DNA of 64,000 nucleotides from a virus (taxonomy: Duplodnaviria > Heunggongvirae > Uroviricota > Caudoviricetes): positions 103,998 to 167,997 of IMG/VR virus record IMGVR_UViG_3300049215_000227; one strand, given 5' to 3'. The position numbers and the translations under genes are program-made. The notes under the pieces were generated by a model. The model saw only the letters and a program-made list of their open reading frames with translations. It was not told where the DNA came from and searched no databases. Shown here piece after piece: positions 18,459-59,415 of this stretch; position 1 is the first letter of the stretch, and every line of letters begins with the position of its first letter.

Positions 18459-18472
18459 ATCCTGATCGTATA
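18459..18472 (+). promoter_or_regulatory. promoter-like motif A (CCTGATCGTATAAT)
   Basis: yCTGATCGTATAAT, with a -10-like TATAAT, recurs at 18459, 30899, 52201, 59401 and as a variant at 52681, each just upstream of a gene or tRNA array. Confidence 0.45.
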
Positions 18473-18495
18473 ATCTTGCGGAGGAAATCCGCGAG

Positions 18496-19644
18496 ATGAA
18501 AACTCTACCGACGCTTTACAAGAAGACGTCAACCGGTGCTATCCAGATGTGGAGCATTGGAGTTGACAAGAACGTCATAGTGGTGGAACATGGCCAAAAA
18601 GACGGCAAGATCCAAAGGTCGGAAGAGACGATCAAAGAGGGTAAAAACCTCGGACGATCAAACGAAACAACTCCAAGCGAGCAGGCGCTCCTGGAGGCTA
18701 CGTCTAAGTGGGAAGGCAAGATTAAGAAGGGCTACGTCGAGGATTTGAGTCGCGCTGCTGCCGGCGAGAAGGACATTGACGGCGGCTATGACTGCATGCT
18801 CGCCCATAAGTTTGCTGATCACGGTCACAAGATTTCTTATCCTGCCTATATCCAACCAAAGCTAAACGGTCATCGCTGCCTTGCCATCGTTGATGACGGG
18901 GTTGCAACACTGTGGTCTCGCACTCGCAAGCCTATCACCAGCATGCCTCACATCATTAAGGAGTTGCAGGATGTCTATCCGAGCGGCTATCACGAACTTG
19001 ACGGTGAGTTGTACAATCATGCCCTTAAGGATAGCTTCGAGGATCTTGCTTCTCTTATTAGACAAACAGACCCAAAGCCAAACTGCACAGACGTCCATTA
19101 CTATCTCTACGACAAGAAGATGGATGGCGGATTCGCAGATAGAATTGAGCGACTCTACGGAGAGTTGCACGGATACGAGAAGTCAAAAGCAACCCTGAAG
19201 TATCTAGTCCTCACGGAGACCGTCCTGGTTAAAGACGAAGACGAGATGATGCAGACCTTTGAGGCTTATCTTGCCAAAGGGTATGAAGGCGCTATGGCGC
19301 GCAACGCTAAAGGCTCATACGTCGGTAAGCGCAGCTACGACCTCCAGAAGATCAAGGAGTTCCAGGATGATGACTATGAGATCACAGACCTCGAAGAGGG
19401 TCGCGGAACGTATGCTGGCTGCGGCATCTTTGTCTGCCGTATCCCAACAGCTAAGCATCCTCATCCTTGCACGTGCATTGAGTGTGCCTTTAGAGTTAAG
19501 ATGCGCGGTCCCAAGGAAGGTCTGAGAGAGTTTTGGACGAACTCGCACAAGTATGTGGGTAAAATTCTTGTGGTTAAGTATCAGTACATCTCCAAGTACG
19601 GCATCCCAATCTTTCCGGTTGGGGAAAGGTTCAGTGATAAATGA
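18496..19644 (+). CDS. ATP-dependent ligase-like nucleotidyltransferase (DNA/RNA ligase)
   Basis: KLNGHR (a motif I variant of KxDGxR), DGELY (motif III), EGAMAR (motif IV), DLQKIKEF (motif V). Confidence 0.55.
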   Translation: MKTLPTLYKKTSTGAIQMWSIGVDKNVIVVEHGQKDGKIQRSEETIKEGKNLGRSNETTPSEQALLEATSKWEGKIKKGYVEDLSRAAAGEKDIDGGYDCMLAHKFADHGHKISYPAYIQPKLNGHRCLAIVDDGVATLWSRTRKPITSMPHIIKELQDVYPSGYHELDGELYNHALKDSFEDLASLIRQTDPKPNCTDVHYYLYDKKMDGGFADRIERLYGELHGYEKSKATLKYLVLTETVLVKDEDEMMQTFEAYLAKGYEGAMARNAKGSYVGKRSYDLQKIKEFQDDDYEITDLEEGRGTYAGCGIFVCRIPTAKHPHPCTCIECAFRVKMRGPKEGLREFWTNSHKYVGKILVVKYQYISKYGIPIFPVGERFSDK

Positions 19645-20219
19645 GTGAAGCAGCTTTCTTAGCGTTTGACTGTGAGTCAGGCGGCATCGGTGATGAGGTC
19701 TCCCTTCTGTCCGTTTACTTTGCCGTGTGCGACAAGGACTGGAACGTCCTTGACGAGTTGGATCTCCTAATCAAGCCCAACGACAAGGATGAGACTGGTA
19801 GCACTTTATATAAGGTTACGGCCAGCGCGCTTGAGATCAACAAGATCGACTTGATCAAGCACGACGAGGTTGCTATCACCTACAGCGAGGCTGGTCAGCA
19901 AGTCCGCAACTTCCTATGGAAGTACAGCGAGAACGGCAAAATCAAGCTGGTTCCTATGGGTAAGAACATCAAGGGCGACGTCGACTGGATCAACGGCAGC
20001 ATCCTTGGAGCCAAAGCGTGGAATCAGTTCGTCTCTTACAGGCTGTACGACCTAACTGGTCTAATCATCTACTTGAAGCGCAAAGGTAAGCTTCCTGCTA
20101 ATGCTCCTGAGTCGCTGGAAGGATTCGCAACCAGCATCGGCATCTCGTTTCAAGCACACACAGCTAAGGGAGATACCTTGGCCGGCATCGACGTGGTGAA
20201 GTACCTAGAGAGCTTGTGA
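19641..20219 (+). CDS. DEDD 3'-5' exonuclease (DnaQ-like)
   Basis: Exo I FDCESGG and Exo III HTAKGDTLA (HxAxxD). Confidence 0.55.
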   Translation: MSEAAFLAFDCESGGIGDEVSLLSVYFAVCDKDWNVLDELDLLIKPNDKDETGSTLYKVTASALEINKIDLIKHDEVAITYSEAGQQVRNFLWKYSENGKIKLVPMGKNIKGDVDWINGSILGAKAWNQFVSYRLYDLTGLIIYLKRKGKLPANAPESLEGFATSIGISFQAHTAKGDTLAGIDVVKYLESL

Positions 20220-20416
20220 CATATTCGTTCAACTTTGTACTTAAACAAACCGGCACCGGAGAGTGGACTATCTTCTCTGAGAAGGGTCACGCTCTTCACG
20301 TGCTGTCTCGCGTTTCCGATCAGAGCGATGCTGAATCGAGGGCGAGAGCATGGGCTTCCTCCTGGAATTCCGTTAACATAAGGGTTGAGGATGGCAAGAA
20401 TAAGCAAGGAAATTGA
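20216..20416 (+). CDS. hypothetical protein
   Basis: 66 aa. Confidence 0.3.
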   Translation: MTYSFNFVLKQTGTGEWTIFSEKGHALHVLSRVSDQSDAESRARAWASSWNSVNIRVEDGKNKQGN

Positions 20417-20687
20417 GTGCATTGCAAGACTTGAGGAGCTGAGTGGCGGCTCGCAAGACATGATCCTGGAGTTTCTAACTCAGGAAAGTCTTGTGAGTAA
20501 GGAAGAGCGAAAAGCCATGCTGTCGTCCTCGGACGTCGCCAAGGCGCTGCATACACATCTCGGACGCTTGCAGCGAGACAACAAGCTTCAGCTACTGGAG
20601 TACGAGTGGATCATGCTCCCAGTTGAGCGCGTCAAGATCACCATCATCACGGATCGCAACAACAAAGAGTTCTCGTATAACTTTTGA
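20385..20687 (+). CDS. hypothetical protein
   Basis: 100 aa. Confidence 0.35.
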   Translation: MRMARISKEIECIARLEELSGGSQDMILEFLTQESLVSKEERKAMLSSSDVAKALHTHLGRLQRDNKLQLLEYEWIMLPVERVKITIITDRNNKEFSYNF

Positions 20688-20693
20688 GGTTTT

Positions 20694-21065
20694 ATGAAGG
20701 GCCAAAAAGAAGCCGTAATTGAAATTGTCAAGATCCTGCTGCCTACGTTCAGACCGTATAAGGACATAGCTCTGGTCATGCTTACCAAGCAGCAGCTGGA
20801 GGATCTCAAGCACCAGATCGGTCAAGGCATCTACCTTGGCCAGATCGAGTACAGTAAGGACGCCAGTAATGGCCCAGAAGTCTTCTCTTATGCTCGTTCT
20901 ATGGTGATGAACCATCTCAAGAAGGCTAGAGAACTGAACGGAAATCAGGTTTACGGGTCATCTGCGGCTGTGGTACAATCAGCTAAAGAAGAGAAGAAGA
21001 TGTCCGCTCTAAACGTAGACATCCTCTCCGATGACCTCAAGGCTTTCGTCAAGACGCTTGTATAA
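20694..21065 (+). CDS. hypothetical protein
   Basis: 123 aa. Confidence 0.4.
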   Translation: MKGQKEAVIEIVKILLPTFRPYKDIALVMLTKQQLEDLKHQIGQGIYLGQIEYSKDASNGPEVFSYARSMVMNHLKKARELNGNQVYGSSAAVVQSAKEEKKMSALNVDILSDDLKAFVKTLV

Positions 21066-21109
21066 CAAACGATGCGCGCATAGGGCGCTCGGCAATAGAG
21101 ACGAGGCTG

Positions 21110-21403
21110 TTGATGTCTAGACGTCAAACGTCCAGGGTTGTCCCTGGCGCTCCTACAATTTCACGACGCAGGGATCGAGCAACGGCGGCTCATCTGGCTC
21201 ATAACCAGAAAGGTGTACTAGATTCGACTTCTAGCCCTGCAACCATTCCACCAAAAGACGATATCACCATGGTATATGCCTTGAAACTGCTCAAGGTTTT
21301 ACTGTGGAAACTAGGCATTATCAAAGCTACCCCTGATGAGATGGAGTTCTTCCTTGCGCTGATAAGCGCTGACGAGATCTATTACGCTAGGAAGTTTACA
21401 TGA
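21110..21403 (+). CDS. hypothetical protein
   Basis: 97 aa. Confidence 0.3.
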   Translation: MMSRRQTSRVVPGAPTISRRRDRATAAHLAHNQKGVLDSTSSPATIPPKDDITMVYALKLLKVLLWKLGIIKATPDEMEFFLALISADEIYYARKFT

Positions 21404-21509
21404 GAGTGATAGAGAGGATCTACGCTCGACTGTTCAACGAGATGGACGAGTATCATCGCGACTCCCTACTTGAACTGCTGCGAAAACTAGAAGTGATAGA
21501 GGCATCAGA

Positions 21510-58792: not shown

Positions 58793-58796
58793 CCAT

Positions 58797-58869
58797 CGCT
58801 ACGTGGTCCGAGGGGTTAGGCAGCACTCTCATAAGGTGCTTAATGAAGGTTCGAGTCCTTCCGTAGCGA
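58797..58869 (+). tRNA. tRNA-Met(CAT) (elongator-type or Ile2/lysidine type)
   Basis: Acceptor CGCTACG/CGTAGCG with C1-G72 paired (not initiator-like), A73 + CCA. Anticodon stem GCACT/GGTGC, loop CTCATAA. T-arm GAAGG-TTCGAGT-CCTTC. Confidence 0.5.
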
Positions 58870-59038
58870 CCAAAAGTTAAGGTTAGTATGTGCATTCATT
58901 GCGATGCTTTAGATAGCACGGACTACTTGATAAGCTTACTTAATAAGTTGCTAGAGACGGAGTTTCCGCCAGCAGCAGACTTCAAGTACGCTAACGAGAA
59001 GTTCAAGGATGAGAGCATGTTAAACAAACCTATAAAGT

Positions 59039-59111
59039 TGCCCGGTTCGTTCAATGGATAGGATATGACGCTACGAACGTCAGGACGGGGGTTCGATTCC
59101 CTCACTGGGTA
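59039..59111 (+). tRNA. tRNA-Arg(ACG)
   Basis: Acceptor GCCCGGT/ACTGGGT, A73 + CCA. D-arm GTTC-AATGGATA-GGAT. Anticodon stem TGACG/CGTCA, loop CTACGAA. T-arm GGGGG-TTCGATT-CCCTC. Confidence 0.5.
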
Positions 59112-59119
59112 CCATGTTT

Positions 59120-59191
59120 GTCCTTGTGGCCGATTGGAAAAGGCCTCTGCCTGCAAAGCAGATGTTCTCAGTTCGATTCTGAGCAAGGACT
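59120..59191 (+). tRNA. tRNA-Cys(GCA)
   Basis: Acceptor GTCCTTG/CAAGGAC, T73 + CCA. D-stem GGCC/GGCC. Anticodon stem TCTGC/GCAGA, loop CTGCAAA. T-arm CTCAG-TTCGATT-CTGAG. Confidence 0.5.
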
Positions 59192-59324
59192 CCAAGTCTG
59201 ACCGACATAAGATGGTCGCTTGCAGAAGGGGGAGAGACGGCACTCCGGACCCAGTATTCGAAGCTGGTAGTCGCGGTAAGCAGAGCGCAAGGGAAAGCGC
59301 TGTACTCCTCCACCATTTTTACAA

Positions 59325-59391
59325 GGGGGTTCTTCTGGGAAGAACTTGGCCTCCAAAACCGAGAAGAAGTGTTCGATTCACTTAACCCCCG
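59325..59391 (+). tRNA. tRNA-Trp(CCA), compact 67-nt form with minimal D-arm
   Basis: Perfect acceptor GGGGGTT/AACCCCC, G73 + CCA. D-arm only TCT-GGGA-AGA. Anticodon loop CTCCAAA closed by a C.A mismatch. T-arm AAGTG-TTCGATT-CACTT. Confidence 0.4.
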
Positions 59392-59400
59392 CCATCCTTT

Positions 59401-59415
59401 CCCCGATCGTATAAT
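59401..59415 (+). promoter_or_regulatory. promoter-like motif A (CCCCGATCGTATAAT)
   Basis: Copy of motif A, 18 nt upstream of ORF 59433 (RBS GGAGGG). Confidence 0.45.

Follow-up and report, generated by a model that had tools for sequence, protein, structure and literature searches.

Middle promoters of phage T4 pair a sigma70-like -10 element with a MotA box, (a/t)(a/t)(a/t)TGCTTtA, which lies near -30 and 11-13 nt from the -10, and they depend on sigma appropriation by MotA and AsiA. The P1 promoters of the E. coli rrn operons carry an UP element whose proximal subsite reads AAAAAARNR, and the lambda cI gene is expressed without a leader from PRM. In T4, genes e, soc, 49 and I-TevI are reportedly masked from translation by mRNA hairpins that contain a promoter, and the middle and late genes of Thermus phage phiYS40 are said to be expressed leaderlessly from a -10 element adjacent to the open reading frame (ORF). 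Extended -10 late promoters are used by phages once sigma region 4 has been disabled, as by gp39 of Thermus phage P23-45 (PMC4124052, PMC3950348), and in Deinococcus-Thermus leaderless expression proceeds from a -10 adjoining the ORF (PMC12340547). Here we compare with these systems a set of short motifs that recur upstream of genes and tRNA arrays in a 64-kb stretch of DNA from a large uncultured tailed phage (IMG/VR record IMGVR_UViG_3300049215_000227, positions 103,998 to 167,997), which we call the window.

The window is about 50% G+C, has nearly all of its genes on the plus strand and contains 31 tRNA genes. It is the early/metabolic region of a large phage, with genes for nucleotide and cofactor metabolism (ribonucleotide reductase, ThyX, and NAMPT with a PRPP-synthetase-like protein), for nucleic-acid enzymes (RtcB, an ATP-dependent DNA ligase and RNase H) and for proteins such as ClpP-like proteases, a MoxR-like ATPase with its VWA partner, peptide deformylase, Pth2 and RF-1-domain proteins. 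The best protein matches have 28-43% identity. Comparisons were made with relatives from IMG/VR, of which L001-L004 have a ligase with 68-70% amino-acid identity to that of the window and L005-L024 an ATPase with 56-79% identity.

We consider it probable that the motifs are transcription start signals of this novel, tRNA-rich phage and that they fall into two classes. The first, the CYGA box, would unite two motifs that an earlier note on this DNA had called A and B with about 12 further copies of w-w-T-yCyGA-N3-TAnnnn lacking -35 and UP signals. Its box would lie about 19-15 nt before the start of transcription, next to a -10-like element in which only TA is strongly kept; transcription would begin at a pyrimidine/purine (Y/R) step 18 nt past the C of the box, and the mRNAs would either be leaderless or have a leader of 10-18 nt opening with the Shine-Dalgarno (SD) sequence. 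The second class would be a host-type extended -10 promoter, TGnTA(t/a)AAT; motif C of the earlier note would be its strongest form, driving stable-RNA operons, and its other members would drive protein genes leaderlessly from an ATG 6-7 nt past the hexamer. Sequence statistics, conservation and geometry are observed directly, and from them we infer that the motifs act as promoters, where transcription starts and what kind of polymerase factor is involved.

All three motifs recur as had been claimed, above chance, on the gene strand and almost entirely in non-coding DNA. Motif A (YCTGATCGTATAAT) is exact at 18461 and 30899 and has one mismatch at 52202 and 59402; these four matches compare with 0.69 expected, and one of 100 shuffles reached four. 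Motif B (TYCYGAAACTAT) is exact at 7524, 35270, 36033 and 37298, and with up to one mismatch it has five matches against 0.79 expected, a number that no shuffle reached. Motif C (AAACACGTGGTAKAAT) occurs as identical 16-mers at 48258 and 55606. Every match to A, B and C is on the plus strand, and the eight core A and B sites are non-coding, except that 52202 shares the last 5 nt of the upstream gene. Once tRNA T-loop words are set aside, TCGTATAAT and CTGAAACTAT are the most over-represented words of the window. Equal frequency inside genes had been named as a pattern that would speak against promoters; the sites are instead concentrated in non-coding DNA. The coordinates first given for the motifs are right to within 0-2 nt, apart from a B site placed at 36023 that belongs at 36033. 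Among four supposed variants of A, those at 936, 5384 and 21737 are true relatives (CYGATC with TAAAT or TAATAT), but that at 52681 is not A and is a motif-C-like promoter (GAAAAATAATTTT...CTGGTATACT-N6-ATG). Most A and B sites do lie 15-60 nt from a start codon or tRNA cluster; the exceptions are 52202 (6 nt from a GTG) and 35270 (8 nt from a GTG).

Judged by their sequences, A and B belong to a single family, (a/t)(a/t)T-yCyGA-N3-TAnnnn, of which they are the two frequent spellings and which has about 20 copies in the window. In alignment A reads CYGA-TCG-TATAAT and B reads CYGA-AAC-TATnnn, with A/T and then T before both. The joint pattern [CT]C[CT]GA...TAT is found 13 times on the plus strand (10 of them non-coding) and once on the minus strand, with 2.5 expected per strand. 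A weight matrix trained on 75 sites from the relatives only, then applied to the window, gave 19 matches of at least 12 bits on the plus strand and none on the minus strand (1.6 expected); non-coding DNA makes up 12.5% of the window and holds 15 of the 19. The scan recovers every A and B site listed earlier plus three of the four variants, and adds 3487, 6572, 16644, 25153, 27803, 31311, 35453, 48204, 52980 and 62903 (each 1 nt after the start of the span given for that site below).

The relatives supply further spellings of such sites. When their intergenic words were compared without bias with their coding words, GTATAAT, TCCGAAA, CCGAAAC and CGTATAA came top; TCCGAAA occurs 18 times in intergenic DNA versus once for its reverse complement (16.6-fold over coding), and CGTATAA 13 times versus none. 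Upstream of the ligase orthologue, exact motif A (CCTGATCGTATAAT) is present in the window and L004, and TTCTGATTATATCAT in L001-3. In 18 of 20 relatives the ATPase orthologue is preceded, at a distance of about 40-50 nt, by a CYGA box with divergent flanks, and a second box follows the terminator of that gene. The site ahead of the ATPase is spelled AAC-TATGGT in the window, TCA-TATATA in L010 and TTC-TATCTG in L005, and that ahead of the VWA gene AAC-TATTAC in the window and ATT-TATAAT in L007. Because orthologous sites interchange A-like and B-like spellings, we treat A and B as one family, and the earlier division into three families gives way at this point: A and B share the core yCyGA-N3-TA and swap upstream of the same orthologous genes.

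The anatomy of the box was profiled over 91 non-redundant sites. Information is close to zero from -46 to -9 relative to the box, leaving no -35 and no UP signal, and A/T is preferred 2-3 nt before it. After the box come W-W-N, a T in 52 of the 91 sites, an A in 83 (at +8, a position that the search did not constrain) and then t/a/a. Counting from the C of the box, a pyrimidine stands at +17 in 73 sites and a purine at +18 in 78. A pyrimidine-purine step is the usual signature of a transcription start site. Distances from the box to the start codon mostly spread over 27-36, with a sharp separate peak below this range, at 18. Taken together these features would put the start site 18 nt after the box C; the box would then span about -19 to -15, with the TA element at -11/-10. 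When the profile is tested as a sigma70 -10 element, the well-kept A takes the -11-like position and is preceded by T in 52 sites, and the last T is found in 34 sites. The A sites carry TATAAT and the B sites TATnnn, so that the remark that B has no obvious sigma70 -10 was correct: B keeps the TA and not the final T. The -35 element of a canonical sigma70 promoter was rejected for A, B and the CYGA class as a whole, with no TTGACA-like signal 16-18 nt upstream in the 91 sites; consensus-type sigma70 sites are also not enriched in the window (17, 7 and 24 found versus 21.4, 12.3 and 15.4 expected).

All CYGA sites of the window listed here are on the plus strand. The A spelling is found as CCTGATCGTATAAT at 18461-18474, with predicted start G18480, ahead of the DNA ligase gene 18496-19644; as TCTGATCGTATAAT at 30899-30912, upstream of gene 30954-31301; as CCTGATCGTATAAA at 52202-52215, where the GTG of the DenV-like gene 52222-52680 comes 6 nt past the hexamer with no SD; and as CCCGATCGTATAAT at 59402-59415, upstream of gene 59433-59717. 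The B spelling is found as TCTGAAACTATAGA at 7525-7538, directly after hairpin 7492-7519 and upstream of 7555-7812; as TCCGAAACTATCAA at 35271-35284, 18 nt after whose box C lies GTG 35290 of a 64-aa hydrophobic ORF, and whose hexamer is the 5' arm of a terminator-like hairpin (35278-35311); at 36034-36047, upstream of the MoxR-like ATPase gene 36088-37242; and at 37299-37312, after terminator 37255-37289 and its T-run and ahead of the VWA/metallopeptidase gene 37336-38733. The sites at 7525 and 37299 thus form terminator-promoter junctions with the hairpins before them.

The remaining members are CCCGATCCTAAATC at 940-953 (17.3 bits), upstream of 973-1158; CCCGATTCTAAGAT at 3486-3499 (17.3 bits), after terminator 3351-3384; CCTGATCCTAAATG at 5383-5396 (14.7 bits), upstream of 5412-5603; TCTGATCCTAAGAA at 6571-6584 (12.4 bits), in the last codons of 6148-6591 and before ATG 6597; CCTGATCTTATATC at 16643-16656, a weaker site (9.4 bits) before the subtilase gene 16675-17706; CCTGATCTTAATAT at 21744-21757 (16.5 bits), with ATG 21763 18 nt after the box C and no SD, of leaderless type; TCTGATCTTATCTG at 25152-25165 (14.7 bits); TCTGAATGTAAGGG at 27802-27815 (12.7 bits); TCTGAAACAATAAT at 31310-31323 (13.3 bits); TCCGATTCGAGAAA at 35452-35465 (18.9 bits), also of leaderless type, with ATG 35471 18 nt after the box C; CCTGAATCTAATGC at 48203-48216 (15.0 bits), about 55 nt upstream of motif C, with which it may form tandem promoters before the first tRNA array; TCTGATTCTAAAAT at 52979-52992, the best score (22.3 bits), after tRNA-Glu and before 53037-53594; and CCCGACCCGATATA at 62902-62915, weaker (11.8 bits), upstream of 62933-63649.

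The second class was collected as strong extended -10 elements (TGnTA[N]A[AC]T). The plus strand of the window has 11, and 10 of these are at gene or RNA boundaries; the minus strand has six, five buried in plus-strand genes and one (15163) before a minus-strand gene. The TG one base before the hexamer is present in motif C (GTGGTATAAT, GTGGTAGAAT) and at nine other plus-strand sites, and is absent from A (TCG) and B (AAC). By its sequence motif C would be one version of this broader class, an extended -10 (TGgTAtAAT) combined with a UP-like element rich in A. Its layout is A-tracts of the GAAAAATAA type at about -46 to -38, weak -35 hexamers and then AAACACG-TGG-TAtAAT. A test for UP-type stable-RNA promoters, which calls for an A/T-rich element around -40 to -60 ahead of a stable-RNA operon, found GAAAAATAA or AAAAATAAT at -46 to -38 at 52653 and 55580 and in L006 and L012. 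Downstream of motif C promoters lie tRNA arrays and RNase P RNA, and motif C aligns with copies in L006 and L012 (GAAAAATAA...AAAACACGTGGTATAAT-N6-ATG), each followed by tRNAs and RNase P RNA.

Motif C promoter 1 (48228-48273, plus strand) has an A/T-rich tract and AAACACG-TGG-TATAAT, an extended -10, and its unit comprises a mini-ORF (48280-48363), three tRNAs, RNase P RNA (48726-49029) and more tRNAs. Promoter 2 (55580-55621, plus strand) has AAAAAATAATTTTTT, which is UP-like, a weak -35 (TTTAAA) and AAACACG-TGG-TAGAAT, and is followed by mini-ORF 55628-55765 and large tRNA arrays from 55806. The motif-C-like promoter at 52653-52692 (plus strand) has GAAAAATAATTTT, a weak -35 (TTTGCA) and C-TGG-TATACT, with mini-ORF 52699-52776 and tRNA-Glu (52897) after it. 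The range of 15-60 nt proposed for all motifs does not fit motif C, whose hexamers are 6 nt from short ATG-initiated ORFs and about 185-195 nt from the first tRNA. The mini-ORFs of the window, and likewise those at 20142 in L006 and 19246 in L012, have 25-45 codons, open exactly 6 nt past the motif C hexamers and precede the first tRNA by about 100-190 nt; the peptide of 48280 (MNTQLLTNRNSLRAFSSSNASFYSLFN) is similar to that of L006 (MTTHVITNNLFLRNSSSSSVSLYSFNRL). They could be either translated leader peptides or a conserved leader RNA.

Motif C had been described as occurring only ahead of tRNA arrays, which is too narrow: members of the extended -10 class stand before protein genes too (43014, 46494, 51606 and 51831), and in an unrelated contig the motif C 17-mer is found ahead of protein genes that are SD-led. 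The element TGGTATAAT at 43014-43022 is 7 nt from ATG 43030 of a 204-aa endonuclease-like gene. TTGACC-17-TG-TATAAT at 46474-46502, 6 nt from ATG 46509 of a VTC-domain protein, is the only near-consensus -35/-10 promoter of the window. TGGTAAAAT at 51606-51614 is followed by N6 and ATG 51621 of a 70-aa ORF, and TGATATAAT at 51831-51839 by N7 and ATG 51847 of a 119-aa HNH-like ORF. TGTTATAAT at 30382-30390 ends 6 nt before the tRNA-like gene 30397-30489; TGATACAAT at 16318-16326 lies before 16345-16647 and is conserved in L004 (7910); and TGGTAAAAT occurs again at 17711-17719, before 17753-18457. These sites are on the plus strand. On the minus strand, TGGTAAAAT at 15163-15171 is followed by N6 and ATG 15156 of gene 14434-15156; this ORF and 15076-15906 on the plus strand overlap at their 5' ends by 81 nt, so one of the two starts is probably wrong. 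At 34763-34794 two leaderless-type promoters would stand back to back and diverge, with TAAAAT (34783-34788), N6 and ATG 34795 on the plus strand and TATAAT (34774-34769), N6 and ATG 34762 on the minus strand.

The unrelated contig is 54 kb long with 32% G+C (L142/L143, IMGVR_UViG_3300045988_094912) and has no detectable protein similarity to the window. It contains the motif C 17-mer AAAACACGTGGTATAAT four times, always preceded by ...ctcgcataa and followed by an SD-led gene; the 17-mer includes the palindrome CACGTG. Its presence in an unrelated contig suggests a shared host or host polymerase preference, or else a shared regulator.

Both promoter classes appear often to be leaderless, judging from a start codon 5-8 nt past the hexamer and the absence of an SD. 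Among 81 non-redundant strong extended -10 sites from the window and relatives, ATG begins at 6 nt in 13 and at 7 nt in seven, and the other offsets tested have 0-4 sites each; strict hexamers were used for this count, a looser TGnTAnnnT set being confounded by coding periodicity. Gene 43030 and six orthologues (seven phages, 58-77% amino-acid identity) all keep the extended -10, N6-8 and the ATG, and retain the promoter-ATG spacing although their N-termini differ in length. The same geometry is found for 46509 in the orthologues of L006 and L011. Since the orthologues of 43030 and 46509 keep this geometry, the ATGs 6-7 nt after an extended -10 would open real genes. TAnnnT stands 5-8 nt before the start in eight of 42 window genes without an SD versus none of 82 with one, and two minus-strand genes (15156 and 34762) share the arrangement. 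CYGA sites with a start codon 18-19 nt after the box C are those before 21763, 35290, 35471 and 52222; the start at 52222 is supported by two protein family profiles that align from residue 1. Leaderless-type genes make up about 10-13% of the genes here, and most genes have strong GGAGG sites.

Where a gene behind a CYGA promoter is SD-led, the promoter is often embedded in a hairpin. The 30 nt before the start of such genes have a mean folding energy of -5.4 kcal/mol versus -2.6 kcal/mol elsewhere (p = 2e-5), and in 13 of 42 promoter-proximal genes, versus 15 of 268 others, the SD forms the 3' arm of a hairpin with a stability of at least -5 kcal/mol (Fisher p = 7e-6). The 5' arm of these hairpins overlaps the hexamer or the bases ahead of the predicted start. 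In hairpin 18473-18497 the SD and start codon of the ligase gene pair with sequence upstream of the predicted start, and the anti-SD hairpin CCTCC-ATC-GGAGG (59416-59428) straddles the predicted start A59421. Pairing of the SD with sequence before the start would therefore leave read-through RNA masked and promoter RNA open, as in T4 e, soc and 49, because the 5' arm lies upstream of the predicted start. SD-masking hairpins occur before non-orthologous genes, and so look like a general design and not one conserved locus. The terminator hairpin 37255-37289 after the MoxR-like ATPase gene has a loop that contains (T)TCCTCC, identical to the anti-SD; this loop is kept in more than 12 relatives (same position, L005-L015) while the stem covaries.

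A reading of the motifs as start signals is well supported, if indirectly, by the strand and intergenic bias, the orthologous conservation, the start-site signature, the leaderless spacing and the terminator-promoter junctions. Several points weigh against it. The T at -7 that sigma70 needs is not conserved in the CYGA class (34 of 91), and some CYGA 'hexamers' resemble an SD (AAGGAA-N5-ATG in L005 and L008), which would move the start nearer the box. Two of the leaderless-type starts are GTG, and GTG starts are inefficient for leaderless translation in E. coli. Site 31310 stands before a terminator-like hairpin (31325-31356), which makes its function doubtful. Searches of the window gave no sigma factor, gp55-like or MotA/AsiA-like gene, so the factor that reads the box is one we can only infer. 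Megablast against 50,697 phage records gave no close match and no cultured relative, the sequence of the relatives covers the same genome region as the window only, and the gene maps come from a simple in-house ORF caller.

That the motifs arise by chance or composition, or are remnants of dispersed repeats, might be suspected from their shortness and from an IMG/VR scan for the A 14-mer, which returned many scattered single matches; the shuffle tests, the 19:0 strand bias, the intergenic enrichment, the conservation at orthologous sites with diverged flanks and the lack of any extended repeat around the motifs make this scarcely credible. A division nearer to that of the earlier note would have A read by host sigma70, B by a phage sigma as a middle or late class, and C as a dedicated tRNA promoter. 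Two spellings are indeed sharply preferred in the window (GATCGTATAAT four times and GAAACTAT four times) and are enriched in the relatives too, A has a perfect TATAAT where B is without the final T, and in the window and L006 tRNA arrays follow every exact C 16-mer. Yet A and B agree in register, in the w-w-T before the box and in their distance to starts, intermediate spellings (TCC TAAAT, TCT TATATC, ATC TATGGA) are common, and the orthologous ATPase and VWA sites switch between the A-like and B-like forms; with the C 17-mer before SD-led protein genes elsewhere and extended -10 elements before protein genes here, we hold three separate classes to be unlikely.

The CYGA box could also be an operator, for a repressor or as a GATC switch sensitive to Dam methylation, superimposed on weak -10 promoters of the ordinary kind, and would then play no part in promoter recognition. 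A short box that adjoins the -10, has GATC in its A spelling and is clade-specific, as a target of a phage DNA-binding protein would be, suits this idea, which we nevertheless find quite improbable: the box is asymmetric with no dyad or repeat, its spacing to the TA and the Y/R step is fixed to the nucleotide, there is no other upstream element to recruit polymerase, and GATC is present in at most 20 of the 91 sites (position 5 = C). Action in RNA, as an endoribonuclease processing site or a translational operator in a polycistronic transcript, would account for motifs that are intergenic, strand-specific and near ribosome-binding sites in a phage rich in RNA metabolism (RtcB, RNase P RNA, RNase H, Pth2). 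The motifs, though, often follow intrinsic terminators, the -11-like A and the Y/R step are promoter features, no conserved RNA structure includes the box, and the leaderless spacing and hexamer-overlapping hairpins make sense only with RNA that starts downstream of the motif, so that we rate an RNA-level role as very improbable. Start signals in two classes remain our preferred reading.

The CYGA box is confined to this clade. The window and close relatives have about 3 matches per 10 kb, whereas the gene strand has none in the most distant relatives (L021 and L022) or in the contig with motif C. In about 2 Mb of unrelated phage loci, the negative controls, which were retrieved with the HNH gene and with the DenV-like gene, the density is 0.3-0.6 per 10 kb, a background level. 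This confinement makes a phage-specific factor plausible. In the mechanism that we propose, a sigma70-family holoenzyme would melt the TA element and the CYGA box would stand in for the -35 contact, the likeliest mediator being a phage factor peculiar to the clade, whether activator, sigma-appropriator or phage sigma. As the reader of the box we tentatively favour a specificity factor that the phage encodes and that works together with such a holoenzyme; a phage sigma is a more doubtful candidate, and the host holoenzyme alone an unlikely one. More speculatively, yCyGA might be the target of an undescribed clade-specific factor, a sigma-appropriator or minimal sigma that reads -19 to -15 and not -35, within the largely self-contained expression programme of a lineage of large uncultured phages. 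Such a programme would combine a private promoter code, widespread leaderless starts, translational gating by promoters in hairpins, a set of about 30 tRNAs and an RNase P RNA encoded by the phage itself. Among the first 24 proteins of the window (51-10000), one has a weak Pfam match to the SutA RNA-polymerase-binding domain (E 0.0028), possibly a lead to a factor that binds RNA polymerase or an artefact of acidic composition.

Within the unit of motif C promoter 1 the phage encodes a bacterial type-A RNase P RNA (48726-49029, plus strand, Rfam RF00010), which is a more surprising observation than the promoter code. It scores 153 bits against a gathering score of 100 (E 2e-47), spans the full model in 304 nt, and sits between tRNA-Asn and tRNA-Ser, 3-6 nt apart. 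The CR-I/CR-V core is retained and the P4 helix is compensated; about 43 model positions of the specificity domain are deleted and another helix is shortened. The RNA is conserved in at least two relatives with 159-178 bits (L006, 20848-21137; L138, 837-1139 on the minus strand; L012, 19954-20361). Blastn of it against the 50,697 phage records found no similar sequence, and the literature searched contained no report of a phage-encoded RNase P RNA.

ARAGORN calls the tRNA-like gene 30397-30489 (93 nt) tRNA-Ile(tat), and Rfam does not report it at the gathering score; a transcript from the TGTTATAAT promoter would begin at or beside its mature 5' end, and the arrangement is similar in L007 (4716). 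Weak Rfam tRNA-like matches that ARAGORN does not list, at 51228-51295, 52814-52888 and 58024-58080 (29.6-36.3 bits), may be degenerate or unusual tRNAs, and T-loop-like words also occur at 51274 and 51428. Among the tRNA arrays are HNH-type endonuclease ORFs and an RF-1-domain (ArfB-like) protein (49811-50140, 50429-51224, 51847-52206 and 56099-57041). Beside Pth2, peptide deformylase and RtcB the window also encodes a NADAR domain, a Macro domain and the VTC-domain protein, and its set of translation and RNA-repair genes is unusually rich. A search for relatives with the VTC-domain protein found nothing, and the peptide deformylase query found no cellular relative. The ATPase query, made for a clue to the host, gave as its sole match the L012 contig, binned in a Cytophagales metagenome-assembled genome (MAG); L012 is identical with L057 (LNEN01000305.1, 146,658 bp), which was deposited within a 'Cytophagales bacterium' MAG. 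This is a possible hint to the host or a binning artefact, and a weak hint because the phage uses strong GGAGG SD sites.

Few phages, all of them cultured, have a known promoter code, and here the sequence by itself allowed a coherent one to be proposed for a clade without cultured members: a promoter that lacks a -35 and has a new proximal box, a host-type extended -10, leaderless starts and SD-masking hairpins. It offers a map of transcription units for annotation, a predicted phage specificity factor, and short portable elements that can be tested in vitro. The literature searched contained no description of the CYGA motif, and nothing relevant on CTGAAAC as a phage promoter motif or on CTAAATA-type late promoters.

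By sequence and by its position next to the -10, the CYGA box appears to match none of the promoter families tested. A sigma28 (FliA) reading, TAAA-N15-GCCGATAA with transcription starting about 7 nt past the element, was rejected in spite of the likeness of yCCGAwww to CCGATAA: no TAAA signal precedes the box, and both the start signature and the shortest distance to a start codon come out at 18 nt from the box C and not at about 12-14. An extracytoplasmic function (ECF)-type reading with TGAAAC as -35 and CGTA as -10 was rejected as well, both words being in the same register with nothing conserved 16-17 nt downstream, as was a sigma54 reading. A T7-like RNA polymerase would be expected to leave about 17-23 nt continuously conserved up to +1; about 14 nt are conserved, ending about 5 nt before the Y/R step, and no RNA polymerase gene was found in the 64 kb. 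The T4 late (gp55) reading was rejected because it requires TATAAATA at -13 to -6, which has zero occurrences in the window, and the T4 middle reading because the 91 sites have no conserved positions at -30 and the window has no MotA/AsiA match.

The stable-RNA promoters resemble E. coli rrn P1 in that copies of motif C carry GAAAAATAA/AAAAATAAT at about -46 to -38 and drive stable-RNA operons; they differ in their extended -10, weak -35 and A/T-rich (not G+C-rich) discriminator, and in the short ORF that begins at the predicted +1. The leaderless-type genes are like those of Deinococcus-Thermus, phiYS40 and lambda cI, with a start 5-8 nt past the -10 and no SD, an arrangement kept here in orthologues, but here they are a minority of the genes, most of which have GGAGG, and they include two GTG starts. 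The masking hairpins have the plan of those of T4 genes e, soc, 49 and I-TevI, with the 5' arm upstream of the start of the internal promoter and the 3' arm over the SD or start codon; the internal promoters of T4 are late ones (TATAAATA), whereas here they are CYGA boxes, in a window with no TATAAATA. In function the CYGA arrangement most resembles the T4 middle promoters and the -35-independent promoters of Thermus phages (PMC4124052). Motif C, like the extended -10 promoters of the P23-45 type, has TG one base before TAtAAT and little or no need of a -35, and the CYGA class is likewise -35-free and would rely on an element just before the -10; its C-Y-G-A, however, lies 2-5 nt further upstream than TGn, its Y may be C so that no TG is needed, and the final T of its hexamer is not conserved. 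T4 centres its MotA box near -30, whereas yCyGA would lie at about -19 to -15 and abut the -10, with nothing conserved near -30. What the CYGA promoters share with T4 middle promoters is a phage-specific upstream box joined to a sigma70-like -10 without a -35 hexamer, at sites among early and nucleotide-metabolism genes and before tRNA genes, mixed with promoters of host type.

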